From Reclinomonas americana ATCC 50394 (lineage: Eukaryota): a stretch of 42,385 nucleotides of DNA. The stretch covers positions 60,505 to 102,889 of the forward strand of contig PS015504.1 in the NCBI GenBank assembly GCA_048213135.1, read 5' to 3'. The position numbers were made by a program, and so were the translations under genes. Shown here piece after piece: positions 206 through 41,516 of this stretch; within the stretch, counting starts at the first letter, position 1; each line of letters opens with the position of its first letter. The notes beneath the pieces are model-generated. The model saw nothing but the letters and a program-made list of their open reading frames with translations. It searched no databases and was not told the DNA's origin.

Positions 206-3200
206 ATGGCAGACAAGACGTTGCGTGTGTGTGCCAGAGAGTGAAAGAGAGGAAATGCATATGCGCGTGCGTCGTAAAAGTGCTCTATTTTGGCTGGTGA
301 TGGCGCACCATGCCCGCCTTTTTTCCCCCTCCTTTCCCCCTCTCTCTTTTTCTCTTAGAGTGCTCACTGTGTCGCGTTGTTGTTCGCACAGTGCCACTGC
401 TGTTGCAGGCGGTGGTGGTGGCGCTGGTGTAGCCTCATTACCGCCTTCTGAATCATTATTACCGCCTGTGCGAGGAGCTTCCTCGTCAGTGTTGTCATCA
501 TCATCATCGTCGTCGTCTTCATCGACCGCAGCAGCCGCAGGTGAGTCACCATACAAACGGCCTTTCTCTCTTGCATTGTCCTCCTTCCGCTTCTCATGCA
601 GTTGTGCATGTGGCGGCAGCTCGGCCGGATCACTTTGGCGAGTTGGATCCGGAACGGATACCTCTGCTGCTGCGGCAGTTGGTGGAAGAGGCGCTGTCGG
701 GGTGCTTCTCGGCGTCAACGACAGAGTGCGGCTTCTTTGCATCGGTGCCGACGCACCCGGCTGTGTATCCGCACGTGGTGCGCGATCCGTGGTTTGCCAA
801 GGACCTGATGAAGATCATTCGCGAGAGACACGACAATGTGCCAGTTGCGTGCTGAGAGGGGAGAGGGGGTGAAGGGGGAATGGGTGAGAGAGTGGGAAAG
901 GTGTCTCGTAACTGTTGTCTGTGATTGTCGCTCCATGAGCTGCTCCTGCCTCCAACCACGCTCTTGTCTCTCCCTCCTCCTCCTCCTTGTTCTTCTTCTT
1001 CTTCTCACTACTTTTCTTCTGCATCCACCCCTCTCATTCTGTTTCTTGCCTCTGCTTCAACATCAGTCTTCATCCCTCCGCTTGTCTCCTCCTCGTCCTC
1101 CTGTTCTTCTTCGTCCTCTCCTCCCTTCCTCCTGCCTTTCTGTCTGTGCCGCAATCGTCTTGCATCCTCCACCTCCAGTCCTTCTGTTTCCTCTTGTCTT
1201 CTACTCTCACTCTTTCATTGCCTTCAGTCTCCACTCCTCGCCTGCCGTTGTCTCTCTCCTCTCCTCCCTTCCCTCTGCCTCTTTGTCTTGTCAGCAGCCC
1301 TCTTATCTCCTCCTTCCTCCCTTCTCCTTCTCCTCATCCTTCTCCTCATCCTTCCCTTCTCCTTCCGCAGCTCGTCCGTGCAAGCATCCACGGCCTGTGC
1401 ACCCTGGCGATGAGTCCGGAGGGACGCAGCGTAGTCATGGAGGCCGGAGCTCTGGATTTCGTACTGGAGCTCGGCGCGAAGCCAGCCTACGCCGATCTGC
1501 GCTGTGACTTGTATCTGGTGGCCACCGCGCTCACCTCGTCGGGGCTGGTGGTGAACGGCGTCAACCTGGCGCAGCGGATATTCCCGGCGTATCGAGAATT
1601 GGTGTCGGAGCTGAGCTTCTGGACGCGCTTCCCGCTGAGTGCGGTGGCGAACACGTGCGGCAACTTTATCGACACGGCGCGCGGCGAGAGGACAGACTTT
1701 GTCAGTTTGTCCAACAAGGTGAGCGAGAGGAGGAGAATGACGACAGGGGGACAGGGTGTGGGCGCGCACGACTGACACATCTTGTGCATTGTTAGCGTGC
1801 CATTCTCGAGGATGTCGTGTTTCTGGAACGCCTGCAATGGTTGCTGGAGCAAATGGCGGTGGCGAGCAGTGGCAGCGCGGCGACGGCAACCAGTCCTCCG
1901 CCGTCGCTCACCAATGGCCACCATGCGAGTGTCATACCGACGGCCAACGGCAGCGGTGGCGCCAGCGTGATTTCCATGGGAGCCACTCCGCCGGCGGGCG
2001 GTCCGGTGGCCTCTGGCGGCAGCAAGCTGGCATATGCGTTTTCGCTGCTGCTGCAGGACGGTTCGCAGAATCCGGTTGCCAACGAGCATGCGGTTTCCAT
2101 TGTGGACACTGGACTGTTTCGGGTGCGTTGTTGGTTGACTGCTTGTGTGAGAGAGAGAGTGTGCGAGGGTGATGCTGAAAGAGTTGTGGCATCGGTAGAC
2201 GCTGTTCGTGACCGTGATTGAGCCAATGTGCATGGCGTACACACTCGACAACAAACTGGCCATCACGTGGATGGAGTTTGTGTGCAATCTGGCGTTGACA
2301 CGCGACTGTGGTCCACGGTCTGTGTGCGGGCATCCTCTTCCATTCTTGTTTGATTCTGACGTGCGCGCACGGATCGCAGACTACTGAGCATTGAGAATTT
2401 TGTGGACACGCTGTGTGCGGTGGTGATGCGAGATCCCGCCGACGAGAACTTTTACCTGAAGAGTCTGGCCTTGAAGGCGTTGAACACGTGCATGCTCAAC
2501 TCCGGTGCGTGTATGTCTCTCCTGCCAGAATGTGTTCATGCATGTGCTAACTGCGCGCTGCAGACATNNNNNNNNNNNNNNNNNNNNNNNNNNNNNNNNN
2601 NNNNNNNNNNNNNNNNNNNNNNNNNNNNNNNNNNNNNNNNNNNNNNNNNNNNNNNNNNNNNNNNNNNNNNNNNNNNNNNNNNNNNNNNNNNNNNNNNNNN
2701 NNNNNNNNNNNNNNNNNNNNNNNNNNNNNNNNNNNNNNNNNNNNNNNNNNNNNNNNNNNNNNNNNNNNNNNNNNNNNNNNNNNNNNNNNNNNNNNNNNNN
2801 NNNNNNNNNNNNNNNNNNNNNNNNNNNNNNNNNNNNNNNNNNNNNNNNNNNNNNNNNNNNNNNNNNNNNNNNNNNNNNNNNNNNNNNNNNNNNNNNNNNN
2901 NNNNNNNNNNNNNNNNNNNNNNNNNNNNNNNNNNNNNNNNNNNNNNNNNNNNNNNNNNNNNNNNNNNNNNNNNNNNNNNNNNNNNNNNNNNNNNNNNNNN
3001 NNNNNNNNNNNNNNNNNNNNNNNNNNNNNNNNNNNNNNNNNNNNNNNNNNNNNNNNNNNNNNNNNNNNNNNNNNNNNNNNNNNNNNNNNNNNNNNNNNNN
3101 NNNNNNNNNNNNNNNNNNNNNNNNNNNNNNNNNNNNNNNNNNNNNNNNNNNNNNNNNNNNNNNNNNNNNNNNNNNNNNNNNNNNNNNNNNNNNNNNNNNN

Positions 3201-5146
3201 NNNNNNNNNNNNNNNNNNNNNNNNNNNNNNNNNNNNNNNNNNNNNNNNNNNNNNNNNNNNNNNNNNNNNNNNNNNNNNNNNNNNNNNNNNNNNNNNNNNN
3301 NNNNNNNNNNNNNNNNNNNNNNNNNNNNNNNNNNNNNNNNNNNNNNNNNNNNNNNNNNNNNNNNNNNNNNNNNNNNNNNNNNNNNNNNNNNNNNNNNNNN
3401 NNNNNNNNNNNNNNNNNNNNNNNNNNNNNNNNNNNNNNNNNNNNNNNNNNNNNNNNNNNNNNNNNNNNNNNNNNNNNNNNNNNNNNNNNNNNNNNNNNNN
3501 NGCAGGCACGGTGGACAACCTGAGATATCCACGGCCGGACTTGATCGACCAGCTGCCGCCAAGGCTGACGGGTACGCCGACGACGCTGCACAACATGTTG
3601 CCGATTGAGCAGCTCAGTGACATTACGGGAGGTATGTGTTGGGGAAGCATATGTGCTTCGGGCTTGGTATGTGCGTATTCACTGCGCACTCTGCAGCGGA
3701 ACCATTGATCCCGACCGCGTGTCTGGACATTTACTCGTCGTTTGACGAGGGTCTGCTGATGTCGCTGTCGCTGGAGAGCATCCAAAAGTCGCTGCACTTC
3801 TTGGGACCAAAGGTCGCGGCGTGCACCGAGGCCGACAAGCCAAATCTGCTCAGTGCGTTTGCCGTCGTGTACAGGACGCAAATATCAAATCCAGGTCATT
3901 TTTCATCGAGACATGCGCTATCTATCTTTGCTTCTCACGCACGCGCCACAGCAATTGCGAGATATCCACTGTTCCCGAACGGTTCGGCGTCACCTGGTCG
4001 TGGCCTGCCCACCAGACCTGTGGATTACTTGCATGCGTTGCACGCTGTTGCGTTTCCGATCTTCTCTACCTTCACGTGCTTTCCTCCTTTGCTCACCCGC
4101 GTGCGCAGGCGGGTGGCGAGGCGGACGACGAAGACGAAGACGATGGATCGGCCGCGGCCAAGAAGCGCAGGAAAAAGAAGAAGAAGAAGAAGAGCCGAGC
4201 CAAGGCGAATGGAGGGGTGGAGGGCGAGAGTGAGCTGCAGGCGACGGGGGCCGTATCCGGCGACGGAGCCGTGCCCGAAGACATGCCAGATCTGGAAGAC
4301 ACGAGCTCTGTGGAGGGCGGCGTGTCGGACTCGATCCGAGAATTGCCGCCAGGGCTCGCCGACTCTGCCATGGCGCTTCCCATGGTTTGCCATGTTACTG
4401 CTGCACAAGTGCTGCTAGTCTCCTCCTCCCTTACCACCTTTCTCTGCGCAGCCGTCAGAGTTCTCTCGCGGCATGTTTGTGGCCACATCCACATGGTACG
4501 CAGTGCTGCGAGCCGAGGTGGGTTCGAGTCATCGGATAGCCCTCGGCAAGGTGCGTCGGTGGTTTGTGAATGCGTGAGTGTCGCTGATTCCTCAGCTCAC
4601 CTTGTGTGCATTCGTGCAGGAGCGTGGTGACTCCGAGTTTGCGTACGGCGAGTTTGCCAAGGCAATTGGCAGCTACGGCTCAGTGGTCGAGTCGTGGGAC
4701 TACTTTTGGGCGGATCCGCACATCTTGAATGCGACGCTGTGCAATCGGGCACTGGCGTACATGAGACTGGTGAGCGATGCACGGCAAGGCACGGCAAGGA
4801 GAGAGTGGTGCGAGTGAGTCGTCTCACAGTCTCGGCTGTTAATGCAGGGCGACTACGCACGGGCGCAACGCGACTGCGAGTACGTGTTGAGACACGATTC
4901 ACGGAACGTCAAAGCGCTGTACCGGCACGCACTGTGCTGCAAGGAGCACGGTGATTTGCCGCAAGCCATTGAAGGTATCTGTCTGCTCACCCACTCAATC
5001 TCTCCCACGCACATGCTGTGTGTGGTTCATGACACCTGTCGTGTGTAGATGCATCGTCGTTGGTCACCTGGTTACCGGAGCACGCTGGAGCCGCGAATTT
5101 GCGTGCAGAACTTCTGTCCTCGTTGGACTTGCAGGCGATGGACTGA
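206..5146 (+). CDS. Large multi-exon protein: helical (ARM/HEAT-like) N-terminal region, acidic/basic linker, C-terminal TPR repeats; interrupted by gap 2568-3501
   Basis: Exons join in frame at GT-AG sites: MADKT|ATAVAGGG..., LVRASIHGLCTLAMSPEGRSVVMEAGALDFVLEL (ARM-like), then TPR text KERGDSEFAYGEFAKAIGSY...LCNRALAYMRL|GDYARAQRDCEYVLRHDSRNVKALYRHALCCKEHGDLPQAIED, stop TGA 5144-5146. Start ATG 206 is tentative because an upstream GT-AG intron (99-198) could be in the UTR or coding. Continuity across the gap is assumed. Confidence 0.7.
950..1365. repeat. CT-rich low-complexity tract within intron 844-1370
   Basis: Near-pure pyrimidine (TCC/TCT) sequence between the GTTGCG donor and the CCGCAG acceptor. 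Confidence 0.85.
2568..3501. other. Assembly gap (N)
   Basis: Run of N. Other gaps: 6911-7080, 25423-26143, 36007-36545. Confidence 1.
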
Positions 5147-5287
5147 GATGGTGAGCGGAGGGACGAATAAACCAAACGAGAGCACGGACGGATAGACGGA
5201 AATATCGAAACATTGGGTTGCTGTTGTGGGATTCATGTGCATTGGCGATAAGAGTGGGAGACAGGATCGAGACGAGTGCGGCGGCTC

Positions 5288-7533
5288 TCAGCGATTGCGA
5301 GACTTGTCACAAATGTGGTTCAGCTTGCGTGCGTGATCCAGCTTGTGGGCTTGCGTTCGGCATTCACGGCCCCACCTACAGTCACGGCGGCGTGCGTGTG
5401 AGGAGAAATGACGCATCTCTGCATGTGGGCCTCGCTCGGCATACGCACCAGCAGTTCGATCGATTCTTGGCCCAGTCGGGCATGTCGTCCTTTGTCAGTG
5501 CGGCACGGTACTGGTACAACAGCTCGGAGAACACGGAGAAGCAGCAGTTGCGGCACACGTACAAATCAGCGGTGACCGGGTTGCCGTTGCGAACTGTGCG
5601 CGACACGCAGACAATGGAGTCAACTACTGTCGTCGAACACGCAAATCAAGATGTACGCAACCCAGTGCCATCTCGTGATCGCGCAGGCGCTGCACGCAAT
5701 CCTGGAACACATCGTTCGGTGTCAAGCCGCGCTGCGTCATGTGGTAGCGCACAATCTCCATCTCGGCGGGGTTGCTGTTGAGCGCGGTGGCCGGCAGCGC
5801 ATCCATCGACCAGTCACCGAGCTTCTTCAGCGCGCCGACCGCGCCCGACGCACACCCACCAAAGTACTGGTCGCACATGAATATGCGGCAGAGGCCACCT
5901 GCCATGCACGTCAGCATTCTCCTGCATCACAATGTGGCCGCAGAGTTGTGCACGCAACAGGTCTGCACACGCTGACAGCCGGCATCCCGCATCGGCATGA
6001 GGCTGCGACAGAAGCCGCAGTACACATGTTGACCGGTGCACTGGAAGCCATCGGGGCCTGGGTGCAAGGGTATGATGAGGAGATTGGCACACACGGACGA
6101 AGGGAAGAAGAAGAAGAAGGGACATCGCACCTGCAGCAACGCACTCGCGGCACGTGGGTCGACCGAAGCGCGGAATGTCGTCGTCGTCGTCACTGCCACT
6201 GTAGTCGTCCGAGTCCTCGTCGTCGCTGCCGTAGTCGTCGTCGTCGTCGCCACTGTCATAGTCATCGCGGCGACGTCGACCCACACGCATGCTGTGATTT
6301 GACGGTGAGCCATGCACCTTGCGAGATTGATGCACGGAGCCACACACCTCTCCGACGTGATCATGTTCATCTTGTCCAACTCGGCAATGTCGTCGGGTGA
6401 GCGCTTGGCCTCCGGATGTGACTGCCGAGAGAAGCAAGTTACGTGAGCAGAAGGAAGAATGGAAGAGAAGAGACAATGATGGGGTGCACCTCCAGATACG
6501 CCTCCACCACTGCAAAGCAAGCAATTCGGTGAGATGCAGGGGGGAAAGAGTGACATTAACGGTATGGTGCGCAACGATTGCTAACAGTGTGATTGCGGTG
6601 CACGACCTCAACACGACGGCGGCATTGCGGGCACGTCTTGTTGCTCTTCAGCCACTGGCTCATGCACGGCGCACAAAATGTGTGCATGCCTGTCACACAA
6701 ATGTCAACTCGTGGCAGTTCACATTCACACCTAGGAGAGCGAACGCAACAAGGCATGGCCGAGACCGCCAGATACAAAACCTCGTAGCACACCGGGCATT
6801 GCAGTTCCGACTCGAGTTTCTTGTGCTGCACACACACACACATAGTTGTGAGCGACAGCGACTTTACACAAGAATAAGAAAACAATGTGAGTGTGACACG
6901 CACCAGACGTNNNNNNNNNNNNNNNNNNNNNNNNNNNNNNNNNNNNNNNNNNNNNNNNNNNNNNNNNNNNNNNNNNNNNNNNNNNNNNNNNNNNNNNNNN
7001 NNNNNNNNNNNNNNNNNNNNNNNNNNNNNNNNNNNNNNNNNNNNNNNNNNNNNNNNNNNNNNNNNNNNNNNNNNNNNNNNGGTGGAGAGGCTAGTCAGTG
7101 AGACAGTCTCCACACACCTGCACACTCCTGCACAACAAACCTGAGGTCCTTGACCACCAAGTAGCCACGTCCACTGGCCGCATCCTGCTCATACCACACC
7201 GCACAGTGCCGCGCCGACACTCGGCGATCATCGAAACGACACTCGTCGGGCAGCTCGGGTCGTCGCCCAATCACCACTGCCGACTCCTCGTTGAGATTGC
7301 GCGAGGAGAAGATGCCAATGGGTTGCAGAGAGGCGGGCCCAGCTGAGTACGATGCGCCAACGGGGACGAGACGGGCAACAGGCTGCTCCACCTGTGACTG
7401 AATGAGCGCAGAGTAAGTGAGCGCATGAATTGCAGACAACTGTGCGTGTGATGTGCACCTCGTCGTCTTTGGTGGAGGAGGAGAGGTCGGCGGCATCCGC
7501 GTCAGTGATTTCCAAAGTGGCGTCCAGCGACAT
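5288..7533 (-). CDS. CHFR: E3 ubiquitin ligase CHFR-like (FHA, RING, Cys-rich region, C-terminal PBZ)
   Basis: FHA: VVIGRRPELPDECRFDDRRVSARHCAVW...VKDLS. RING: LQCPVCYEVLYLAVSAMPCMHTFCAPCMSQWLKSNKTCPQCR, followed by HRNHTVSNLVEAYLESHPEAKRSPDDIAELDKMNMIT, matching CHFR NNLVEAYL..HP.K.RS. C-terminus VCRNCCFSVFSELLYQYR...RSNCWWGRECRTQAHKLDHARKLNHICDKSR matches the CHFR PBZ. Gap 6911-7080 lies inside the gene. Confidence 0.92.
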
Positions 7534-7621: not shown

Positions 7622-9170
7622 ATGACTGCAGTTGCGCGCTCACCACTCTCACTCTTTGCTCACTCACATACACTCACATCCACTGTAATCAGGTGCCCAC
7701 CTTTGGCCACGCGCTTGGACGCGAGCATTTCGGCTTGGCGGCGACCTATCGCAACTTTAATCATGGCTCGTTCGGGTCGGCTCCTCGCGCAGTCACCTCT
7801 GCGCGACGACGATACGAGGACTTGTGTGAGGTGCGTCTCCTTCTCTTTCACACACATCTCCTTGGTGTCTCAATGCTGGCTTGCAGGAGCGCCCTGATCG
7901 ATGGTTCCGCGAAACCTTTTACCAACTGTGTCGTGAGTCGCGTGAGGCACTGAGCGCCTACCTCAACGTGCCGGGATCTGTCGATCACTTGGTGCTGGTG
8001 GAGAATGCGTCCACGGCAGTCAACTCGGTGCTGCGCTCGATGCAGTGGAACGAAGGCGATGTCATTCTCTACTTTTCCAACACGTGCGCTCTCGAGAAGC
8101 TTCAACTGGGAGACTCGACTCGACTTACACCCTTCGCCTTTGTTCCGCAGGTATCCCATGATCCCGTACACGGCAGAGTGGATTCGCGATCTGCAGTCGT
8201 ATCGTGTATCGCTGCGACTTGTCACGGTGCCGCTGCACTTCCCGCTCGTGGACAAGGAGTCGGTGCTGGGGCCGCTGCGTGAGACGCTGCAGTCGCTGGT
8301 TGCGGAGGGCGCCCGGGTGCGTGTGGCGTTTGTGTGCCACGTCAGCTCCATGCCCACGGTGGTGATGCCGGTGCAAGAGATGGTGGCCGAGTTGCGCGGC
8401 TCGGGCGTGGTCGACAGTGTGTTTGTGGACGGCGCGCACGCCATTGGGCAAGTGCCGATCGACCTCACAGCCATGGCACCCGACTACTACACCGCCAACT
8501 GCCACAAGTGGCTTTACGCGCCCAAGGTATGTGCAAAGACACAAGATCGCCGCTTCGAAGACTGAGATGTAAAACGCAACGCAGGGCGCTGCCGTGTTCT
8601 ATGTACGCCCCGAGTTGCAGACGGAGTTGTCGCCGCAGCCGACGGTGATCTCCAGCACCGGCATGCGCGGCTTCGTTGACCGCTTCGCGTACACGGGAAC
8701 ACGCGACTACACGCCGTTCACCTCGATCAAGGACGCGCTGCAGTTTCGCAACGAGGTGTTGGGCGGCGACGAGGCCATTCGTGACTACGTGGGCGAGCTT
8801 GCACGCTGGGCGGGTCACTACCTCGCCGAACAGTGGGGCACCAGGGTGCTTGTGCCCGACGCCATGGTGGGTCGGGCGAGGAGGGGGTTGATGCCACCTT
8901 GTCACTGCACACTGACATCTTTTTGATTTCCAGATTGGTTTCATGACGAACGTGGAGTTGCCGGTGCGCAGTTTCGCCGAAGCGCAGCACCTGCAGGAGC
9001 GTCTCGATAAGCAGCACGACGCGTACATGACGGTGCTGCAGGTGGACGACATTGTGTACAGCCGCATCTCGGCACAGGTGTACATGGAGAAGGAGGACTA
9101 TGAGTGGCTGGCACGCATGGTGCCGGAGGTGCTGGCGTCGATGCGAGAGGGCGAGGCCGGTGAAGCATGA
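7622..9170 (+). CDS. PLP-dependent class V aminotransferase-fold enzyme (Egt2 hercynylcysteine sulfoxide lyase / L-cysteine desulfhydrase / isopenicillin N epimerase-like)
   Basis: 6 exons: MTA|VPTFGHALGREHFGLAATYRNFNHGSFGSAP...; LVLVENASTAVNSVLRS; FVDGAHAIGQVPIDL; DYYTANCHKWLYAPK|GAAVFYV (PLP lysine); FAYTGTRDYT; YSRISAQVYMEKEDY; stop 9168-9170. Confidence 0.9.
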
Positions 9171-30000: not shown

Positions 30001-33000
30001 GCAGCAACGAGGTATCCAACACCGAGCCACGCAATTGTAGCTGTCGAAAGCAAGTCGCACGTAAAGCATCAGCTGGCAGGAGGGCATGAAAAGACACCGC
30101 ATGTACCCGCAAACAAATCGGCTCACACAGCGAGTCGAATGCAATGTGCTCCTCGTGGTACGACACGCCATTGAAACGAATGTTTTGCACCTCCACCAGC
30201 GTCTTCATCTCTGTGCACTTCGTGTGAGCAGGCGAGAGCGCATGAGTGTACATGGCAGCCACACCAACGGAACCCTTGTCAGGCAGTGATGCGGCGGCAG
30301 CAGCTGTTGATGCGCTACCATGGCGACCTGGTAGGTGCATCCACGCGCATGAGTTCGCCCATACACCAGTCAGCATGAGGAGGACACACTCACCTGATCG
30401 TTTCACCGACTGAATGCCGCGCAGCGCATCGACCGTGTCAATGCTGATGCTCATGACGTCGTTCTTGTCGCTCTCATCGAGCACAAAGATCTCGGTGCCG
30501 CGCACGAGAATGTGGAACTCCAGAGCAGCTGCACACGCGTTGCTGTGTTTTAGTACGTGGCAACAAGAGCGCGATCGCCACACGTGAGAGACGAAACGAC
30601 TGGGCTTGCTCGTGGCTGTCTCCTCGTCCACCTCCGACGTCCCGACACCGTCAACATCAAACTCGGTGAAACGAGGTCTGCAGTAGTTTCTCTCTCGCCG
30701 TCAGTGACTGCTCCAACAAGAAAGGAACATGTGGACAAGCAGTCGGCGCTCACCGTGATGGTGGATCGTCCTCCGATGACATCTCATCATCAAAGTCCAA
30801 TGCATTCAAGCGCTCGGCAACGGCGGCCGCCATTGGCGTCGCCGGCGCGTGCAGCTGATGCAGTGGTGATAGTGGATCGCGAGCAGTTGGGTCTTGAAGG
30901 CGCTCCAGGAACTTGCCGGGATCGTCGACGATCTTTTGCACGCGCAACATCAACCTGCAATCAACGTCGTGGGGTTGAATAAAACAGCCGGTAGTGATTA
31001 ACACGGTCAAAAAAGACGCACTGTGTGACAGCTTCCATGGGCGCCACATAAAAGTGGTTGTCGCGACTGAGCAAGAAGCGCCCGAGCTGCACCGCCATCT
31101 CCCGCAGTCAGTCGAAACAGAAACAAACAACGCGAGTCCCCGGTCGTAAAGCACACTCACGCAACATGACCAATGTTGCTCGAATTGACACCCACGTGGA
31201 TCGAGTGTGCACGCATAAACAGCCGAACCGGCAGCACCTCCGGCGGTGCCTCGACCACAGACGACGATTCTCCAACTGCGTGGCACACCTGCTCTGAGAA
31301 AAACTGTGCAGATGAGAGGAGATATTTTTTCTGCAGACCCACCTCGCGCCACATCCGACGTAGGCGGCGGCGGTGGCGGCGGCGGCAGGGGAATCTCCAC
31401 ACGCACAGCAATCATGGGCTCCACTTCAAGTGGCAATGTGTCGCGACTGATGATCATGGTGGTGGAGTCGCTTGCCGCTGGAAGCACACAGCACAAAGGT
31501 GAGCTCGTGAACGGACGGCAGTGGCACAAGATAGGCGGCGCACACACCAGAGGATTCGGTGAACCAGCTGTTTTGCCGATGCGAGGCACGGTCGTCGGTC
31601 ATGCGCGAAAAGTAGCGCTCCAGGAAGCGGTGCTTGTTGGTGAGCAGCGCCGAGGCCGGCGACGGTGACTCGGGCGGGCAAAACACCTGTTCAATGGGGA
31701 AAGCAGGCAGAGAGGTGAGTCGTACGGTCACTGCGCCCGGCAAATCGGAGCGACACGCTCACCTCGACCGCCTGCAGCGTGGCCTTCAACACCATCAGCT
31801 GCTGCGCTGGCTGCACCTGCACGAGGACGTGTGTGTCGGACAGCTCGACGGATGAGAGCACTGCGGTGGTGCTGTGCAGTGCTGTGAAGGTATTCCGTCA
31901 GCAGTCAGACCACATTGTCGTCGAGCACAGCAACGCACAAGTGGAGAGTGTGGGTTCGCGTATGTCCACGCTCTGCTCCAGGGCCACTTTGATGCGGTGC
32001 AACGTGAACAGCGCCAGCACACTGCAACATTCGCACGCTGCGAGATGAGTGTGGTGGCCAGCACAACAACTCTGCTCAAGCACGCAACGGAGGGGCGATC
32101 GGTGGGGCGGCCGGCGGCGCGGTGGAACGTGGAGTGACTACCGGCGATCCTACCTCCGACTGCTGCTGTTGTTGTGCCTTCTGCTCCTTCTGCATCTTCA
32201 GGTACTGCTGCAGGAGCACTCGCACCACGTCGGGCGGCGAATCAAAGAAGGCATGCGCAAACTCGAACACTTGCAACAGCTGGTCTTGGCTGATGGAGAG
32301 CGCAATCTCCTCGACCCGTCCATACGCCACAATGGCAGGCGCCGTGGCGTGCATTGGCTGACATCATAGGACAATCCATATCAGCAGCATGTGACAAGGA
32401 GACGAGCCGACACAGAAAAGAAAACGTCCACACACCTCGAGGTTCATCAGCAGCTCCACATGCATATTGAGCGGAGCCAAGATGCGCTCCGGCAGCGAAA
32501 AGTAGGAGCTCTTGACGTCGATCTCGAAGCCATGAATGTCGAACTTGAACATGCGAATGTAGGGGATGCGGTGGGCGTCGAGCCCCGTAAAGTCGCCGAA
32601 TGTTGACGGGAACCGCGGCGCATCTTCCTCTGCTCGTGCGGAGCTCGCAGAAGACGGCGAATTGGGAGAGAGTGGTGGCGACTGTGGTGGCGTCCGTGCA
32701 GACGCCAGATCCACCACTGATGAGCGCTCAAACACACTCCGCGCCCCCAGCACCTCAAACGTGTCGGGTGCATCCCAGTTGTTCGTAATCACGACTGCAC
32801 GGCTTGTGTGAGTGACCAGCAACACCACCAGAGAGGAACGAGTGCATGATGCACGCAACTCTTGTCAAAGTGCATGCGCAGGATAACGCCGCTCGGGAAC
32901 GGAGCCGGAATGGAAATGGTGGGCGACACGACTTCCACACGCATGCGGAACGGATCCGACGGCAGCACGGGACCTTGAAAGTTGACGAGTTCCATTGGCG

Positions 33001-35593
33001 GCTTGAAATGGTTGGGAATGCACTCTGCCACACCATGCAAAGACAGAACAAGATAACGCACGTCGTAAGAAGGCTGGTGTGCACAAAGCAACAGTGGCAC
33101 CAGCGTCGGATCGCACCTTGGAAGAAGACCATGAGCCCGGAGATGACATCAGGGTGGATGTAAATGGCCGACGGCTGCAGCTTCATCTCGAGTTCGAGCA
33201 CTGGCGTCGGCGGCGGTGGCACGGGCAAGCGACTGATGATCTTCATGCGCAGGAACATGCTCTTGTGGTCGCGCGACATGAGCGCCACCGCCTCGGACGG
33301 ATAGGTCTCCGTGTCGGAGAATTGCGGCCACAGTCCTGTCGTGAGAGAGAGAGAGAGGTGAGTGGGGGAGTCGGTTGTGCAATGGCAGCACGTGGAGTGT
33401 GGCGCACCAGCTCGATACTCCTGATTCAACCAATCGGAGCCCTCCGCTGGCGCAAAGATGTGCGAAAAGTCCTGGTGATAGCGCGCGCTGGGGAAGTTCT
33501 CCTTGACACTGATGAATGGCAACGAAACCTGCATAACGCAACGAGGTTTCATCAACACAACTCGTAGACATACAGAGATGAAAAGGCGAGAGCACGAGAC
33601 CTGCACTTGCGTGTGCGACATTGGTGCATCCTCCTTGAAGACGAGACTGACGCGAATGTCGCTCGACACCAACGAGTAGGAGCGACTGTCGGCATCACGG
33701 CTGCCGTCGCTCAACGGCGACGATGCTGCAGGTGTGTGTGAACGGGACTGCATGAAAACAGGCAAGAAGGATGCAGGCAGTGCGACGCGACTCACCAATG
33801 TCGGAGACAGAGGCTCCGAATTTCGGCATCAGCTTGATGATCAACTGCGGCACAATCATGTTGATGACGACTAGCGGATGTGGCGGGACCGCCTGTGGCG
33901 ATGCAGACGAGCCACTGGCTCCACTGCTTGAGCCACCAACAGCGATGCCGGGGTCGGTGGGGCCATCCATGCCCACTGGCTCATCGTCCTGCGCGCACAC
34001 ACAACAAGACGAACTGCGTGTGAGTATGCACACGCCACTGCCTACTCTCTGCTGTTGTTGTTGCTGCTCGTACACGCACATCAGTGTCCTCGCCCAGCTC
34101 CTTGGCCAGCTCCTCCAGCTGCTCCGACGCGTCGTCCTCTTCGCTGCCATCCGAGGTCGCCGGCGGCACACCGCTCACGGCCGGCGCTGTAAGCCTCAGT
34201 GACGATTCGGCTCGCGCAGCTGCGGTCTGCGAACTGGCCGGAGCGGGTACATCGTCGCGGAAGATGCAATAGACCAGCCCAGATACCTGCCGTGCCAGAG
34301 TCAGCGCGCACGTGTTGGCTCTCTTGCGTGCAACCGCCAGCACTTACCGAGTGCAGCAGGGAGCGCAAGTCGAGAGATGTCACTTGAATGATGAGGTCAT
34401 CCAACGTGATGTTGACGTACACGGCTGTCGGCGTGCCACCAAGTGCTTTCTTGGTGATTGACATCTGGCGCATAGTCGAGGGTGAGCACACAGCACACGC
34501 TCAAGTGAGGTTACCGCGACACCACCACAACACCTTCATCATGCAGCTGAGGTTGCGCAGAATGTAGGACCGCTCGCCCACCGTCTGTGTGCCATACGAA
34601 CGCGCCATCGTGAACAGGCTGATGGAGCGCACGATTCCCTTCTTGTAAACGGTGATCTCTGGCACTCGCTTGTTGTACTTGGGCAGAGCCTGGTTCAGTG
34701 GAACCACATTCCATTCCGAGTTGGTCGTGAACATGGCAATCTCGTTCAGCTCGAGGCACAGCGCCGGTGGAGTCCTGCGACAGCAGCCGTGAACAACAAC
34801 AAAAGGCTGGAATGCACACGTCACAATTCACCAATCGCCTGTGGCCTCGGTGCGATACTGGCCGAGTGTGAACAGTCGAACGAGAATACTATTCACCTCG
34901 AAGCGCAGTCCGTCACCGATCCGATCACCGAACCCGTACTTGGCCAGTTTTGGCGGCTTCTTTGGTGGCTTCTTACTGCACACACGTGTACACAGGTGAT
35001 TGGATGCGCAACGTCAGTCACCATCCATGCGTAGGAAGCAGCTGCAGGGAGGCCGGCAACGAAACGTCGGGAACAGATGCGACACAAGATCCGGAGCCTC
35101 GACCAGCGTCTCCGGCTCCACCACATCCACGACGATCTGGTCGACGCAGATGGTGACGGGCTCGGAGCCGAGCTTGGTCACCGAACACTGCACGCATATC
35201 GCCGTGAGAAAGAGCGTGCGCGAGGAAGGAAAGCGCGCACGAACCTTGACGTGCGCTCGATTGATGAATGCACGAGCCAGCTTGATCTGTGGCAGTCCCG
35301 TCAGCGAGTTGATGGCGTCCACGTTCAGCTCTGCATCTCACGTGTGAGTGATGAGGTGAACACAGGAGAGCGAGTGAGAGAGAGAGAGAGGAGAGAGTGA
35401 TCGCACCAATGTTGGTCAACACGCCCTCGCCCTTCATCAACGACAGCGAGATCTGCTCTCGCGACCAGTTGACAATGAATGCCTTGAGGTACTTGGCAAA
35501 GATCTACCGCACCCACTTGCGTCAGCCGTGCGCATGCACACCACATACTTGCAATAACACAGCGACACCCACCTTGCTGATGATTGCCTCCAT
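27059..35593 (-). CDS. Bridge-like lipid transfer protein, BLTP3/UHRF1BP1-like (Chorein_N + RBG-type body) with C-terminal PH domain and coiled coil; about 28 exons
   Basis: MEAIISK|IFAKYLKAFIVNWSREQISLSLMKGEGVLTNIELNVDAINSLTGLPQIKLARAFINRAHVKCSVTKLGSEPVTICVDQIVVDV (Chorein_N) and YGFGDRIGDGLRFEVNSILVRL...TTNSEW...EITVYKK align with the BLTP3 N-terminus as I recall it. PH-like: IEGPVEFVDPVRKKTRTRYALVRRTTLYWYRSQK...KGSLDLTGA...YLFFASDEERSMWTQAL (~29010-29400). Terminal coiled coil ends at TAA 27059. An uninterrupted in-frame splice path could be traced. Confidence 0.8.
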
Positions 35594-35901
35594 GATTCAG
35601 ACTCTCTTTCTCTCACACGCACTTACAGACACACGCAGCGTGCAGAGACAGAGAGACAGCAACCACAGAGACACCACCCCTGTGCGGGAATCCACATGAT
35701 TGCAAGTGTGTGAGCAAATGGTTCCCGGCACATCGATGCCGAAATGCGATCACAATGCAGACTGACAACAAACCAGCGAGCAGCCAGTGAGCTCCTCTCC
35801 TCACCTCTCCTCTCCTCTCCTCTCCTCACGCACACGCACACACGCACACACCGCACAGACTTTTTTGCCGGTCTACTTGGACAATTGACCGACTGTAGCG
35901 G

Positions 35902-38900
35902 ATGAGTCACCTGTAAGCGAGCGCGCCGCTGAAGGCAGTTTTCACCTCCTCTCGCGCACGCAGACCGGACAAACACACGCTGGAACATCTCTCTCACGCT
36001 CGCTTGNNNNNNNNNNNNNNNNNNNNNNNNNNNNNNNNNNNNNNNNNNNNNNNNNNNNNNNNNNNNNNNNNNNNNNNNNNNNNNNNNNNNNNNNNNNNNN
36101 NNNNNNNNNNNNNNNNNNNNNNNNNNNNNNNNNNNNNNNNNNNNNNNNNNNNNNNNNNNNNNNNNNNNNNNNNNNNNNNNNNNNNNNNNNNNNNNNNNNN
36201 NNNNNNNNNNNNNNNNNNNNNNNNNNNNNNNNNNNNNNNNNNNNNNNNNNNNNNNNNNNNNNNNNNNNNNNNNNNNNNNNNNNNNNNNNNNNNNNNNNNN
36301 NNNNNNNNNNNNNNNNNNNNNNNNNNNNNNNNNNNNNNNNNNNNNNNNNNNNNNNNNNNNNNNNNNNNNNNNNNNNNNNNNNNNNNNNNNNNNNNNNNNN
36401 NNNNNNNNNNNNNNNNNNNNNNNNNNNNNNNNNNNNNNNNNNNNNNNNNNNNNNNNNNNNNNNNNNNNNNNNNNNNNNNNNNNNNNNNNNNNNNNNNNNN
36501 NNNNNNNNNNNNNNNNNNNNNNNNNNNNNNNNNNNNNNNNNNNNNGCCGTTGCACACACACTGAAAGAGACGCGCTCTGTGCTAAACACAATTTGCTGGG
36601 TGTGCGCAGAACGAGTGCGAGCGCCTGAGGAGACTAGTCGTCACTCTGCAGCGCGACCTTGCAGTTACTTCGCCGCCCCGGACACATCCAGCCCCTCGCC
36701 CCTTTTTTTCACACTCCCCCTCTCTGTCACCTGCGCAGGAGAAGCAACGTCGACTGCACGAGAACGGCGTGTACATTGAGGTGGCGAGGGCGAAGCTGGA
36801 CCGCAAGAACAAGGTCATCATGTACATTCGACGGACACTCTTCCAGGAGGTGGTGCGACTGCGTGAGGAACTGTACAAGCAGAGCAAGGCCGGCGGCAAC
36901 TACACGGTACGTAGAGCAAGGCGTTTGCATGTGTGTGTGGCCAGATGGGCTCACACACGCGACGGTGGCATGCAGAGCGAGTTCGAGAGCCTCTTCGACA
37001 TGGCGATGTTGATGGACGAGATCTCGCAGGGCGACGGCCCCGACCGCGCCATGTCGCCCGAGGCCAATGCCAACCTGATCGAGAAGCTGAAGAAGCAAGC
37101 CGACGCCAACAACCAGGCCATGGAGCTCAAGTACTCGGTGCTGATGGAGGAACTGAAGGAGGTATGCGCGAGGGTCCCTTGGCCACAGAGTGACGGGAGT
37201 TGTCCTCACCTAACTGTGTTGTAGAAATACGAGCGGCAGCTGTCTGATCTGGCCGCCGACATGGGCGAGGAGATCGCCAACCTGCGTGCTGATCGGGAGA
37301 ACGCCGAGATTCAGGCCGACTTGCGCGTCCGCCAGGCCATCGAGGAGGTGGAGAACGAGCTGGAGCTCGTCAGGAGGTGCGCGTCCACATGCACCGTGCG
37401 CACATCCATTGCCCTCCACTCTCCCTCTCTCTCACACGTGTGCACAGAGATGCCATTGATCGCAGCAGCATGATGGAGGCAGAGATGGAGGCACTGCAAA
37501 AGCGCAACGACGCCCTGAACGCGGACCTCGATCAAGCCATGACCAACTTGGCCGGCTACGACGAGCTGCAGGAGAAGCTTCGGCAGGCCGAGGAGGAGTT
37601 GAATGAGCACCGAGAGAGTGCGCAGGGCCGGCGCGCCGAGTTGGCACTCGCCGAGACCAAGCTTGCGCAGGATCACGAACAACTGCAGGCCTCCTTCAGG
37701 ACACTCCAGGCCACCCTCGACGACAAAGAAGCAACATTGGAGGAGCTCGAACGCAAATGCAACGAGCTCGACGTCAAGCACTCCGAGTTGTCGTACGAGA
37801 ACGAGCGGTGGACAGACTTGCGATCGTCGGTGGTGCTGGACGAGGCACAGAACCGATACATATGCCAGGAGCTGGTGGACTTGCGACGGCAGATCGCCGA
37901 CCTGGAGCGCACACTGCGTGACGAAAAGACGCTGCGCAACAAGCAGGCCAAGAAAATCATGTCCAAGGCCAAGGCCACTGGCGAAGAGGAGAATGGCCGG
38001 CGCTCCTCCACTTCGTCGGTCACCTCACCCAACTCGAGAGTTGCGTCGATAGTGTCTCACCCTGTGTCGGTGAGATCTCTGGCGACTCGCTCACCCTCGT
38101 TGCTGCGTACTGTAGGCCGGTACGCCAAGTGGCGCCTCTGCTGGTGGTGCTGTCGCAGAGACGGACGACAAGGAGACACAGACACAGGAGGTGACGGTGG
38201 TCGACGGAGGCCGAGTGTCCACGCTGGAGACTGCCAACAGAACACTGGAGGCCACAAAGAAGGCTCTGGAGCAGCACGCATCGACACTGGAGGAGAAACT
38301 CAACAAGGCCACGGCCGATGTCAATCGTCTGCAGCGACGCTTGGTGCAGGTGTGTGTGTGGTGGCAAGCGGTCGGGAGAGAGTGATGACGAGTGGTTGCT
38401 GACGACGATATGTATCCACAGGTCGGCGGCGAAGGAGAGCGCAAGTTCTTCTCCTCGCCAAGCTCCAAGGGCAGCCCGAAGAATGACACCTCCGCAGCCT
38501 CCGACCAGTACGCGGGCATGGAGGTGGCGCCACCCAACGACGAGCCCTTTGACGAGCGCGCGGCCTTCCGGCCACGCAAGGGCTCGTCGCCCAACAGTGT
38601 GCGTCAAGTCGACATTCACGGCCTCGGCAGCGACGACAGTGCCGGCATGTCGGACGACGCAGAAGAATCGAGTTCTCGCCAAGAGCGTCGCCGAAAGAAG
38701 CGACAAAAGGCGACGGCATTCAGGTGAGCGAACAATTGTTGTACATTATCCGGTTTTGGGCAGCAGCATTGATATCATGACGCGCACGCAGCAATATGGA
38801 TGTGTATGAGCGCATGATGCAACGCTCGGTCCAGTCGCGACAGCGCCTGGAGGAACAGCGCAGCCTGCACGCCGGCGAAGTCCGTCAGATGTGGGAGCGG

Positions 38901-41516
38901 CTGCTGGCGGTCACTGGCTACGGCAACCTCTCCGACGAGGTGCTGTCGCCCGAAATCGACAAGATGACGGTCGAGGCACTCGAGCTGGTCGGCAATGGCG
39001 GCTACGGCGGCCGCTCTGGGTTCGCTGGTGGTGCCACGAGCAGTGGGACCGAGAGCGATGGTGAGTATCCGCGGAACCGGCCGTCGCTGCAGGAACTGCG
39101 CGCCATGTATCATCGCCACCTGGCCGAGGCGATGCGCTCGCGATCGGTGAGTGTTCGAAAGAGAGTAAGAGGAGAAGGTGGACTGCACGAATATTGACCA
39201 CGGTGGGCGTGGGGGCAGCCGTCGTTTGCAGCTGCCTCCGAATCATTTTTGGCCGACCATGCGGGTGAGCGTGAATTCCTGCCGGCCAACTTGCGCGGCG
39301 TCCCCGGCGCCCCAGCCACCACCACCACCACGACTTCACAGTTGCTACTGGATGCATTGGCGACGAAGCGGTTGCTCGATAAGCAGACCGAGGAGGAGAT
39401 GCGCAGAGAGTACGAGCGGGACCACGGTCAGTGGGCGTCTCGCTGTCGATGTGATGCATCTTGTGCGAGTGCTGACAGTCGCAACCCACAGCTCCGATGC
39501 CGCCACCGCTGTGGGGCACACGCACACCGCAGTCGGTGTACTCGCTGATGAGCTCCACCGGTCCCCTCAACACCAGCGAGTTGAGTCAGTTGGCGACGAG
39601 CTCGCTGAACCACTCGTTGCACATTAGCAGCATGGGCGGACCGTCCGGCAGTCGCGCCTCTTCGCCACCTTCTCGCCCACCCGCCACGCACACGCACATG
39701 GCCAGCAGTGGCTCTGCCAGTGGCACTGCGTCGCGCTCCACGTCACCCGTGCGACAGCCGGTGGTCACTGTGCAAAACATGCCGCTGATGGCGCGCGACG
39801 GGTCGAACCCCGTGGCCCAGATGCTGCTCGGTCGCCAGTTCACCCACGAGAGCATTCGCGACGACGACGACATGGTCATGGACGACGATGGCGAAGGCGA
39901 CGCTGGCGGCATGCAACAGACAATCACTGGCTCGCACTTCTCGCCCATGTCGGTCGGCAGCAATGCCAGTATTGCGGTCGCGGCCGGCACTGGTCACAGT
40001 GGTCCAGTCACCGAGTTTGCGGCGGCTGTGGAGGCCAGTCGAAGGAAGCAACGGCCGGCCACCGCTCCGCACCGCTCGGTCGCTTCGGCGGATCTGCTCG
40101 ACATGGCGGCCAACGGCGGCGGCAGTGGTGGTGGTCCGATTATGACCGCGACAGCGGCACTCACGGCGGCTGGCGGTGTTTCCGGTGGTGGTGCCTCTGG
40201 TCTGGTCGACGCGGCGCTGGCGTTGCGCAAGCCTCGGCCGAGCACCGCGCAGTCGCTGCGCTCCGCCTCGTGGGCTCCGTACGGCGTCGTGTCATCGTCT
40301 TCCGGTGGCGCCGTGCAAGCCACCATTCCAGAGGGTGGTGCATCGCGCAGCACGGCCTCCGAGTCCGTCTCCAACTCGGTGGTGACTGCGAGTACCGGAA
40401 CTGGCACGGCATGGAGGTCAGTTGGCGCAGCGGTGGTACTCGTGGGAAGCAGACTCCTCACTTTGTTATTGCCACAGACGACCACAGAATGCTGTCGCCG
40501 GCGTCGGAAGCCTATCGCAGTCGTCCAGTTCGAACGACATGGCAGCCTCCATGCAGCTCGTGTCGGCCTCGCACGGCAAGTTCACTCGGCAGATGCGCGA
40601 CTTGCTGAACATGCAAAAGGCCGAGCGGCATCGCCAGATGCCCGCCGTCCGCAACGCACGCACCGCGAACGCCTCATTGTTCCGTGGTCGCGCACTTGTC
40701 AGGTATGGTTTTCTTGATGTGCACAGTCTGTCTTTCTTTCCGCTGATCACGGCGGTGATGCAGACCACTGTCGGCCGGGAAGAGAGAGGACGAGCCGGCA
40801 AGTGTTGCGGTACGACCGACCAGCTCGAAGAGCAACATGGACTGTTGCGTGCATCGCATCACGTGGCTGATATCTGTTTCTCTGAGATTTGCTGATCATT
40901 GCGATTGTGTGCATGCAGTGCATGCTGCTGGCCGCGGTCGGACACCCGTACTGCCACCAGCTGCAGACACTCCCACCAATCCAGCCGACCTCTTGCGCCA
41001 TCTGTTGCGTCCCTTCTCCTCCCCTCGGTGTTTGTTCGCCGTCTCACGTACTTTCCCTTTCCCTTTCGCAGCGAGGAAAATAGTCCGCCGAGTTCATTCA
41101 CGCTGACGCTCCGCAAGAAGCTCGAGCGACTGGAAGAAGGCGAGCGACAGCGTGAGGGTTCCACCAAGCTGCTGGCCTCCGATTACCTTCGGCGTGTCGT
41201 CGATGGTGATGAGAGTGGATCCGCGGTCAATGGATCGCTGGAAACCAGCCTGCAAGCCGATGTCATCAACCAGTACCTGGCGCAGAGCGAATCCACCCCG
41301 GTGCCACATCCTGCTGGCCGACCCCAACGCTCACTGAGTGTGGGCGCCCCCACACGAGGCTCCTCGGCCCCCATAAAACGAAGCCCCGACTTGCGTGGTG
41401 AACCCTGCGAGCCGGTGGAGGGTGGCGGCGTCGGTGTCGGTGGCCTCGATGTCACCAGTCCCTCCTCTCGCTTCGTGAACCGCGTGCGCTACGCCTCGCG
41501 GCAGCACATAAAATGA
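35902..41516 (+). CDS. Large coiled-coil protein with low-complexity C-terminal half, unknown function
   Basis: Spliced heptad-rich exons (NECERLRRLVVTLQRDLA|EKQRRLHENG...RTLFQEVVRLREELY; MEAEMEALQKRNDALNADLDQ...), then Ser/Gly/Ala-rich exons with RPATA/RPSTA motifs; stop TGA 41514-41516. The start (MSHL|PDK...) is tentative because gap 36007-36545 intervenes. Confidence 0.7.

Follow-up and report, generated by a model that had tools for sequence, protein, structure and literature searches.

A candidate second 5' splice-site type, GTTGCG, and its possible one-base-shifted reading in a 42-kb window of Reclinomonas americana

Alongside introns with ordinary donors, this locus appears to contain many that begin with GTTGCG, a motif that rarely follows G, which raises the question of whether a second donor type exists here and, if so, how it would be recognised. 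All donor counts refer to a single window, the whole 42,385-nucleotide (42-kb) stretch of DNA analysed, and to gene models derived from its sequence with a purpose-written dynamic-programming parser, in which donors were scored on intron bases only and the output was then curated by hand. The curated models contain 130 donors, comprising 24 GTTGCG donors (24/130, about 18% of introns), four other donors of the build GTT-NN-G and 102 ordinary donors. The GTTGCG and other GTT-NN-G donors are listed below with the last exonic base (-1) and the support for each.

220..225, plus strand: GTTGCG donor, C at -1; first intron of gene 1; ambiguous, with an ORF-compatible in-frame GTGTGCC 9 nt downstream
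844..849, plus strand: GTTGCG donor, A at -1; 527-nt CT-rich intron; frame-required, no other recognisable donor
4047..4052, plus strand: GTTGCG donor, T at -1; frame-required, the sole alternative being weak-class
5656..5661, minus strand: GTTGCG donor, G at -1, the only such case; CHFR-like gene; read-through leads to a stop, no other recognisable donor; in a variable alignment loop, so not homology-fixed
5953..5958, minus strand: GTTGCG donor, T at -1; CHFR-like Cys-rich domain; junction gapless against eight homologs
6570..6575, minus strand: GTTGCG donor, C at -1; after the CHFR-like RING; junction aligned without gaps, split codon giving Leu in a hydrophobic column
6744..6749, minus strand: GTTGCG donor, T at -1; within the CHFR-like RING finger; Cys/His spacing across the junction equals that of homologs
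7631..7636, plus strand: GTTGCG donor, A at -1; after ATG ACT GCA in an aminotransferase gene; needed to connect the enzyme frame with the single upstream ATG, no alternative donor
9400..9405, minus strand: GTTGCG donor, T at -1; last intron of gene 4; tentative, with good branch and acceptor signals, yet read-through also reaches a stop
9817..9822, minus strand: GTTGCG donor, T at -1; 57-nt in-frame stop-free candidate, supported by signals only
11459..11464, minus strand: GTTGCG donor, A at -1; frame-required, no other recognisable donor
14586..14591, plus strand: GTTGCG donor, C at -1; LST8; 924-nt intron containing 117-nt repeats; homology-fixed
20497..20502, plus strand: GTTGCG donor, A at -1; TSNAXIP1-like gene; ambiguous, in-frame GTGAGA 12 nt upstream
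20814..20819, plus strand: GTTGCG donor, A at -1; ambiguous, in-frame GTGTGT 18 nt upstream
23349..23354, plus strand: GTTGCG donor, A at -1; last intron; tentative, without downstream frame constraint
25075..25080, plus strand: GTTGCG donor, A at -1; intron across an assembly gap; the exon frame stops here, followed by CT-rich low complexity
27186..27191, minus strand: GTTGCG donor, A at -1; 57-nt in-frame candidate, CTAAC branch site present, supported by signals only
28856..28861, minus strand: GTTGCG donor, A at -1; frame-required
31160..31165, minus strand: GTTGCG donor, T at -1; overlaps a GTGAGT 5 nt downstream; ambiguous, two ORF-compatible donor/acceptor pairs
32083..32088, minus strand: GTTGCG donor, C at -1; frame-required, no other recognisable donor
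32854..32859, minus strand: GTTGCG donor, A at -1; frame-required, picked by the parser even with all GT scored equally
38040..38045, plus strand: GTTGCG donor, A at -1; ambiguous, in-frame GTGAGA 30 nt downstream giving a 46-nt intron
40844..40849, plus strand: GTTGCG donor, T at -1; 75-nt in-frame stop-free candidate, supported by signals only, no other recognisable donor
41004..41009, plus strand: GTTGCG donor, T at -1; frame-required
24506..24511, plus strand: GTTACG donor (GTT-NN-G build, other core), C at -1; frame-required, the only usable donor
35060..35065, minus strand: GTTTCG donor (GTT-NN-G build), C at -1; frame-required, no recognisable alternative
12111..12116, minus strand: GTTGTG candidate donor, T at -1; ambiguous, in-frame GTGTAT 3 nt downstream
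24646..24651, plus strand: GTTGAG candidate donor, T at -1; ambiguous, in-frame GTGGGC 9 nt upstream

Support for the 24 GTTGCG donors ranges widely: four are fixed by homology, ten are needed by the reading frame, five (220, 20497, 20814, 31165 and 38040) have an in-frame, ordinary-looking alternative, three (9822, 27191 and 40844) are in-frame stop-free candidates, and two (9405 and 23349) are terminal or tentative. Ten of the 24 are, in other words, ambiguous, optional or tentative, and support beyond ORF logic is confined to four junctions. Among the frame-required donors, no other donor could be recognised for 844, 5661, 7631, 11464 or, additionally, 32088; the remaining ones have weak-class alternatives only. 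Counted over both strands of the whole window, GTTGCG is present in 60 copies; 100 dinucleotide-preserving shuffles gave 37.5 +/- 6.8, none of them (0/100) containing 60 or more, and within genes there are 40 sense versus 16 antisense copies, a surplus equal to the number of donors. Furthermore, a T directly follows the hexamer in 19/24 donors versus 0/13 sense-exon copies (p=2e-6). On this evidence, the GTTGCG donors of the window are judged to be real.

Two further sense copies were rejected as donors in the models, namely 33542, where the acceptor lies 13 nt downstream, and 35012, which has an in-frame TGA ahead of it and whose intron would measure 37 nt. An EM-trained version of the parser dropped the GTTGCG class entirely.

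The position of the cut can be read from conserved residues. In LST8 (donor 14586), comparison with chain 5fvm_C makes residue 33 the last of exon 2 and residue 34 the first of exon 3, which opens with a Gln equivalent to the Gln of mLST8, and in the CHFR-like gene the alignment of the RING and Cys-rich regions shows no gaps over junctions 6749, 6575 and 5958. The preliminary description had held that cleavage occurs before GT, because the LST8 Gln and a CHFR Leu exclude a G|TT cut, and the four homology-fixed junctions (5958, 6575, 6749 and 14586) bear this out; at 5958, 6749 and 14586 ordinary-looking, ORF-compatible alternatives are present, and homology picked GTTGCG in all three. GTTGCG donors in general thus appear to be cut before GT, with the GU one base upstream of the site that the core would define and GCGT at +4..+7, not +3..+6, in 19/24 cases (GCGC in 5/24).

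The two donor classes differ sharply at -1. G occupies this position in 1/24 GTTGCG donors versus 89/102 ordinary donors (curated models of the window, Fisher p=5.3e-15), and the difference is present in the uncurated parser output (1/21 versus 83/123, p=4e-8) as well as in the homology-checked junctions alone (0/4 versus 7/7, p=0.003). The four other GTT-NN-G donors are preceded by T, C, T and C. An earlier count of A10, T9, C4 and G1 for 24 GTTGCG donors is here A11, T8, C4 and G1, with the same single G at 5661, the two sets not being matched site by site. Ordinary donors had also been said to follow G with about a dozen exceptions, and 13 are found, including the previously named 8084 and 26314; the third named site, 13517, is an exception in the uncurated models only, its repeat-rich 5' region having been left uncurated.

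The further proposal that displaced donors avoid G at -1 stands in part. Relative to codon-position composition, G is depleted (1 versus 7.9 expected, P=0.0009), whereas relative to sequence context it is not clearly so: the depletion is not significant against G before non-donor GTT (P=0.10), G before GTT being generally rare in the window (133/873), nor against non-donor GTTGCG (G before 5/36, Fisher p=0.39). A, by contrast, is enriched relative both to codon position (11 versus 4.8 expected, P=0.003) and to context (P=0.003-0.005). A general code opposing G at +5 to G at +6, as had been suggested, fails, given that G precedes 9/10 ordinary donors without +5G, among them three with +6G (21071, 22004 and 34533). 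Nor is the -1 pattern simply an effect of +3T, since donors with +3T that keep +5G, GTT(T/C/G)G, follow G in 9/9 cases (p=3e-7).

The -1 position of GTTGCG donors (A11 C4 G1 T8) matches the -2 position of ordinary donors (A47 C20 G12 T23) in composition (chi-square p=0.55), with A at 46% in both, and the log-likelihood over -1..-3 is 46.6 units higher for a model shifted by one base than for an unshifted model; at -2 of GTTGCG donors, the shifted and flat models were not discriminated. Ordinary -2 departs from codon-position expectation in the same direction as GTTGCG -1, with A at 46 versus 21.7 and G at 12 versus 28.9. The idea in the preliminary description that G+1 may replace the usual G-1 fits these data as an exchange of slots, in which the last exon base acts as an A-preferring -2 slot and no G is required at -1. 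In composition, therefore, GTTGCGT resembles a G|GTGCGT whose first intron G has turned into T and whose cut lies one base upstream.

The reading put forward here, with a probability of roughly 55%, is that ordinary U2-type GT-AG introns here have a genuine second kind of donor, GTTGCG(T), a shifted-register reading of G|GTGCGT. GTTGCG(T) would be the commonest ordinary donor together with its exon G (G|GTGCGT), the first intron G being changed to T; the reader of the conserved GCGT core, U1 first and U6 later, would keep its register, and with the only GT now one base upstream, the cut would shift accordingly by one base. The G of GT would then sit where exon G-1 is usually found, with the last exon base placed in the A-rich, G-poor -2 slot, for which reason GTTGCG donors would not follow G. 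We infer that U1 (and U6) would pair in a +1-shifted register, and the 5' end of the organism's U1 is predicted to fit the GCG core better than human U1 does.

The displaced form is unevenly distributed over cores, with 24 displaced versus 32 ordinary donors for GCG and at most one displaced versus 22 ordinary for GAG (p=5e-4). The motif is long, extending to GTTGCGT in 19/24 donors and to GTTGCGTGC in 8/24, with a pyrimidine always at +7, G at +8 in 12/24 and C at +9 in 14/24. In other respects these introns are ordinary, with a median length of 67.5 versus 68 nt and the same branch motif, CAG acceptor and composition; YTVAY is found in 20/24 GTTGCG introns, at a median of 21.5 nt from the 3' end, and in 88/101 ordinary introns, at 19 nt. 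In canonical donors, -1G is traded against intronic matches, and such exon/intron compensation has a likeness in the window, where ordinary donors without -1G cluster on the best core, GTGCG (8/32 versus 5/70 elsewhere, p=0.02); compensation alters strength within one register, whereas in GTTGCG donors the cut site itself seems to have moved one base relative to the core.

U12-type introns carry an RTATCCTT-type donor and a TCCTTRAY branch site near the 3' end; a minor-spliceosome identity was rejected here, the donor being GTTGCG and the branch motif YTVAY as in ordinary introns. An introner-like repeated family was also rejected, interior local alignments averaging 7.24 over 190 GTTGCG pairs versus 7.39 over 5151 ordinary pairs.

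No U1 or other snRNA gene was found within the window. A human-type U1 5' end, which may not be this organism's, forms a mean duplex of -1.3 kcal/mol with GTTGCG donors versus -7.1 with ordinary +5G donors, C4 pairing with +6 in 12/24 and C9 with G+1 in 5/24, and given this weakness, recognition by U1 would call for a U1 unlike the human one, or else for factors other than U1. A hypothetical guide complementary to the window consensus reaches -9.9 kcal/mol on ordinary donors and a mean of -7.7 on GTTGCG donors, with C4 on +6 in 24/24. In the shifted register U10 could also form a wobble pair with G at -1, so pairing alone does not account for G being less frequent there than T or C. A U1 5' end of 11 nt leaves the conservation of G at +8 and C at +9 unexplained.

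Bulge +2/+3 and asymmetric-loop U1 registers were reportedly described by Roca et al. in 2012. Shifted, bulged and asymmetric-loop registers have been proven experimentally and together make up about 1.5% of donors in humans (Tan et al., 2016, PMC4856993), a rarity that differs from the single heptamer serving 24/130 donors in the window. A shifted (+1) register at atypical human 5' splice sites was described by Roca and Krainer (2009, as cited in PMC4856993 and PMC9311317), and by analogy the GTTGCGT pattern matches this register of a few human sites: as outlined in those accounts, GU is still cleaved, the intron match is displaced downstream by one position, the C9 slot goes to G+1 and the -2 slot to exon -1, and the model oligonucleotide (PMC4856993) has A at -1, as do 11/24 GTTGCG donors. 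The human shifted core is AAGU, whereas it is GCGU here, hence the poor human-type U1 pairing, and the register proposed for this window is a prediction from sequence. In addition, the reported rule that +5G enforces the canonical U1 register (Tan et al., 2016, PMC4856993) agrees with the nine of nine GTTNG donors that follow G.

Another, unlikely, explanation is that U1 keeps its normal register, paired with G+1 and U+2, while the +3 U bulges, the long intronic match GTTGCGTGC replacing exon pairing and leaving -1 free. The bulge +2/+3 register is known in human donors, with 68 predicted (Tan et al., 2016, PMC4856993), and in it, in the asymmetric-loop registers and in GTTGCG donors alike, GU is separated from the +5G/+6U-equivalent pair by an additional nucleotide; the added intronic conservation at +7 to +9 and the non-significant depletion of G against the context null would also suit it. 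These registers, however, keep -1G pairing, and a bulged register should favour -1G, which would add a C9 pair, whereas G precedes a single GTTGCG donor out of 24; a free -1 should, moreover, track coding or context composition instead of being enriched in A on both counts, and the match with ordinary -2 would be left unexplained.

It is very doubtful that a dedicated recogniser, either a second U1 variant (e.g., changed facing +2) or another factor, binds GUUGCGUGC, such that two parallel codes operate and not one register used twice. The long stereotyped motif (GTTGCGT in 19/24, GTTGCGTGC in 8/24), the near restriction of the class to one core, the very weak human-type U1 binding and the reported existence of variant U1 snRNAs in humans would all favour such a factor, but no snRNA gene was found in the window, and a single hypothetical consensus-complementary guide suffices to bind the two classes (-9.9 and -7.7 kcal/mol), so that a second RNA is not required. 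That many GTTGCG donors are mis-called, the -1 pattern arising from donor picking, codon or context composition or small sample, is highly improbable, for although ten of the 24 are less than firm, the models rest on sequence, G before GTT is rare and manual overrides may favour after-G donors in the ordinary class, exon bases were never scored, the contrast persists without curation and in homology-checked junctions, homology chose GTTGCG at three junctions despite ordinary-looking alternatives, and motif surplus and sense bias equal the donor count.

In Mamiellophyceae the donor consensus is atypical and rich in GC, GTGCGT(G), and the branch sites read CTGAC (Irimia and Roy, 2008, PMC2483917; Verhelst et al., 2013, PMC3879977); Irimia and Roy (2008, PMC2483917) wondered whether matching snRNA changes exist. 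The ordinary AG|GTGCGT-type donors and YTSAY branch motif of the window resemble this consensus, whereas the available portions of both descriptions carry no mention of a GTTGCG class or a -1 dependence, and the window is far more intron-dense than the Mamiellophyceae they portray. Extended to the whole lineage, the shifted-register reading becomes quite unlikely: two donor registers would run genome-wide, the cut in about one-fifth of introns lying a base upstream of the junction that U1 defines, and either the U1 5' end would have co-evolved to match GCG or a second U1 variant pairing with U at +2 would serve the GUUGCGU class. Were this so, the major spliceosome would harbour a second, naturally occurring code for 5' splice sites.

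Gene-prediction programs that have learned from G|GTRNG donors would mis-splice about one-fifth of the introns in this genome. Knowledge of noncanonical U1 registers comes from mutational studies covering a small fraction of human donors. If the pattern holds genome-wide, one shifted heptamer would serve about one-fifth of the introns of a single organism, offering thousands of natural test cases for cut-site choice independent of U1 register, as well as test cases for the handling of an extra base by U6, for -1/-2 exon constraints in their trade-off with coding, and for introns sliding by one base.

Within this window, donors of the GTTGCG class, whose core (GCGT or GCGC, +4 to +7) lies one base later than in ordinary donors, lack the strong requirement for G at exon position -1 seen in all other donors, and A is preferred there. 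As the preliminary description had stated, nearly none of them follows G, and ordinary donors mostly do, with about a dozen exceptions, counted here as 13 and including 8084 and 26314 (single numbers denote donor positions in the window).

Base at -1 in the final curated table (130 donors, from gene models of this window)
GTTGCG donors (n=24): A 11, T 8, C 4, G 1 (5661)
Other GTT-NN-G donors (n=4): T, C, T, C
Ordinary donors (n=102): G in 89

Fisher tests on gene-model junctions in the window associate the -1 base with donor class, in the curated table as well as in its subsets and in the uncurated output, which confirms the observation for this window.

G at -1, GTTGCG versus ordinary donors (Fisher test)
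Curated table: 1/24 versus 89/102, p=5e-15
Frame-required and homology subset: 1/14 versus 74/80, p=1e-10
Uncurated parser output: 1/21 versus 83/123, p=4e-8
Homology-checked junctions alone: 0/4 versus 7/7, p=0.003

Introns were obtained with a custom dynamic-programming parser that weighed codon usage and frame continuity together with a profile of branch and acceptor signals, and in which the donor score used intron letters only, so that the exon base at -1 had no influence on donor choice; three GTTGCG donors were already chosen with every GT scored equally. The main version, run gene by gene with GTTGCG and GT[AG]NG in one tier, gave 144 introns, and a self-trained EM gene finder was dropped because its 154 introns reflected over-prediction, with genes merged and donors collapsed onto GTG. 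Curation relied on reading frames, homology and the usual size of introns (median 68 nt); all curated models translate without internal stops. The parser's first donor classes left out the GTGCA(C/T/G) type, which lacks +5G and occurs at 6489 and 7458 (minus strand), 19171 (plus) and 33606 (minus), with G at -1 in three of the four. Among the 24 GTTGCG donors, four are fixed by homology and ten are required by frame, five (220, 20497, 20814, 31165, 38040) have an ordinary-looking in-frame alternative, three (9822, 27191, 40844) are in-frame stop-free candidates and two (9405, 23349) are terminal or tentative. Two further GTT-NN-G candidates, both following T, are ambiguous: GTTGTG at 12111-12116 (minus) and GTTGAG at 24646-24651 (plus).

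The 42,385 bases (G+C about 58%, four assembly gaps) hold some eleven eukaryotic genes, rich in introns and lying on both strands. Pfam searches with single exons (66 exons) gave an identity for those listed below and no family for several others.

Genes with a Pfam-based identity
206-5146, plus strand: TPR protein gene
5288-7533, minus strand: CHFR-like RING/Cys-rich protein gene
7622-9170, plus strand: class-V aminotransferase gene
14263-17020, plus strand: LST8 gene
17171-18117, plus strand: adenylate/UMP-CMP kinase gene
19133-23472, plus strand: TSNAXIP1-like protein gene
27059-35593, minus strand: VPS13/BLTP3-like protein gene with PH domain

The last of these is modelled as a candidate single gene of about 2055 aa and 35 introns, with a VPS13/BLTP3-like N-terminus (weak Pfam matches), the PH domain and a long C-terminal coiled coil. 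For LST8, open reading frame logic places a tentative 6-nt first coding piece, ATG GTG, at 14263-14268 (plus), and after it a 221-nt intron whose donor reads gtgGTGCGT. Repeats are found in two other LST8 introns: the 924-nt GTTGCG intron has a 117-nt tandem unit in about two copies (within 14810-15070), and the 311-nt intron has a tandem 28-nt unit in 8.3 copies (within 16076-16307). CT-rich low-complexity tracts at 850-1370, 18120-18900 and 25080-26190 occupy the few long introns and one 3' region, two of them coming after GTTGCG donors (844, 25075), and the 7-nt unit TCCCTCC is repeated 39 times at 18612-18872. The curated model of gene 4 (minus) stops short, at its 5' end, of candidate donors 13517 and 13653; between its first curated exon and the candidate upstream exons, the plus strand at 12560-13500 is purine-rich with many degenerate repeats.

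The position of the cut is established by conserved proteins. For the CHFR-like gene, phmmer with one exon against 1.84 billion representatives yielded 14 relatives, and the spliced model aligns gaplessly with eight relatives across GTTGCG junctions 6749 (within the RING), 6575 and 5958 as well as across ordinary junctions 6130 and 5448; the same alignment set the donor at 6489 to gagGTGCAC. The LST8 junctions were tested exon by exon against PDB chains. On chain 5fvm_C, exons 2 and 3 correspond to residues 3-33 and 34-67, and exons 5, 6 and 7 begin at residues 106, 129 and 155, exactly as predicted from exon lengths. This settles three junctions, GTTGCG 14586/15509 and ordinary 15929 and 16064; for 15612 and 15790 the residue count supports the two together, not each by itself. 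Exon 3 opens with C, its first residue being Gln and matching mLST8 Gln, so a G/TT cut (slash, cleavage site) at junction 14586/15509 is rejected and the earlier view that cleavage falls before GT stands. At three homology-fixed sites an ordinary-looking, ORF-compatible alternative exists, and homology picked GTTGCG each time. Homologous-protein searches with a CHFR exon and a TSNAXIP1 exon gave no matches, and one with an LST8 exon gave at least 120 multi-WD40 proteins of 875-1947 aa, with no LST8 among the matches listed. The FHA-region alignment was too ragged for placing donor 7140, which, together with 17268 and 35572, rests on weaker grounds (motif recall, Pfam offsets) and is outside the seven homology-checked ordinary donors.

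Apart from the donor, GTTGCG introns are of the ordinary U2 type (GT-AG). They match ordinary introns in median length (67.5 versus 68 nt) and composition, and have the same branch motif and CAG acceptor. A U12-type identity is rejected on donor and branch motif, as is a repeated introner family, since a search for a shared sequence family among these introns found none. Across curated introns the 3' signals are very uniform: 108 of 125 carry a YTVAY branch motif some 19-21 nt before the 3' end, and 113 of 125 have a CAG acceptor.

Whether G is actively avoided depends on the null. Against codon-position composition (23.9 kb of curated coding sequence), G is depleted, with one -1G observed and 7.9 expected (P=0.0009), but the depletion does not reach significance against sequence context (P=0.10; Fisher p=0.39), G being generally rare before non-donor GTT in the window (133/873) and preceding 5 of 36 non-donor GTTGCG copies. 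The excess of A is found under both (11 observed, 4.8 expected, P=0.003; context nulls, P=0.003-0.005).

The best reading of the class is a one-base register shift; in the proposed U1 pairing, G+1 would take the slot of exon G-1 and exon -1 that of -2; N/GTTGCGT equals NG/GTGCGT with T in place of the first intron G. Base frequencies at GTTGCG -1 (A 46%, C 17%, G 4%, T 33%) match those at ordinary -2 (A 46%, C 20%, G 12%, T 23%; chi-square p=0.55), and ordinary -2 shows the same kind of departure from coding expectation. For the last three exon bases of GTTGCG donors, log-likelihood rises from -142.7 under the unshifted ordinary model to -96.1 when that model is shifted by one, with a flat exon background at -101.1; almost all of the gain comes from position -1. 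All nine donors with +3T that keep +5G (GTTTG, GTTCG, GTTGG) have G at -1 (p=3e-7 versus GTTGCG), which ties the effect to displacement of the core rather than to +3T.

The preliminary description had gone further, proposing two complementary donor codes; its shift was retained, but a general +5G/+6G code is rejected, because G precedes 9 of the 10 ordinary donors without +5G, three of the nine carrying +6G. Furthermore, the displaced form is nearly confined to the GCG core (24 displaced versus 32 GTGCG), GAG showing at most 1 versus 22 GTGAG (p=5e-4), and GTTACG and GTTTCG are single cases. These two, at 24506-24511 (plus) and 35060-35065 (minus), share the GTT-NN-G build, lack +5G, are frame-required and each follow C. 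Ordinary donors lacking -1G are mainly GTGCG (8/32 versus 5/70 in others, p=0.02), a clustering that looks as though pairing were budgeted and the best core alone could afford to lose one pair.

The motif also extends deeper into the intron (+7 T in 19 and C in 5, +8 G in 12, +9 C in 14). GTTGCG is over-represented in the window (60 copies versus 37.5 +/- 6.8 expected), and within genes the excess is on the sense side (40 copies versus 16 antisense). None of the 13 non-donor copies in sense exons (for example 8299, 8391, 17565, 17664, 19924, 23210 and 40222, all plus strand) is followed by T, all being followed by C or G (p=2e-6 versus donors, 19/24 with +7 T); the heptamer GTTGCGT is thus either a donor or avoided in exons, from which it looks purged.

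Shifted registers, one-base bulges and asymmetric loops are permitted in the human 5' splice site/U1 helix (PMC4856993, PMC9311317), where validated noncanonical registers account for about 1.5% of donors and +5G forces the canonical register (PMC4856993), and one tandem donor has been proposed to use U6 in a shifted register. Like the human shifted register, the GTTGCG class combines a cut at GU, a core one base later and A at -1; unlike it, the class is frequent (24/130 donors), has another core sequence and forms a single stereotyped heptamer. GTGCGT has been reported as a splice signal in Mamiellophyceae (PMC2483917, PMC3879977), and a literature search of a limited library found no description of GTTGCG or GUUGCG as a donor, which is not proof of its being unpublished.

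Pairing was computed for two guides, the 5' end of human-type U1 given by Tan et al. 2016 (PMC4856993) and a hypothetical one complementary to the window consensus; an Rfam scan of the window gave no matches, hence no U1, U6 or other snRNA gene there.

Mean computed duplex energy
Human-type U1, ordinary +5G donors: -7.1 kcal/mol
Human-type U1, GTTGCG donors: -1.3 kcal/mol
Human-type U1, GTGCG donors without -1G: -1.9 kcal/mol
Hypothetical guide, ordinary +5G donors: -9.9 kcal/mol
Hypothetical guide, GTTGCG donors: -7.7 kcal/mol

Given the weak human-type duplexes, a standard U1 leaves unexplained both why the GCG core is so popular and why the displaced class exists. On GTTGCG donors, the hypothetical guide would form the C4-(+6) pair in 24 of 24 and C9-G+1 in the 11 with -1A, a result that is not evidence but a prediction about the real U1.
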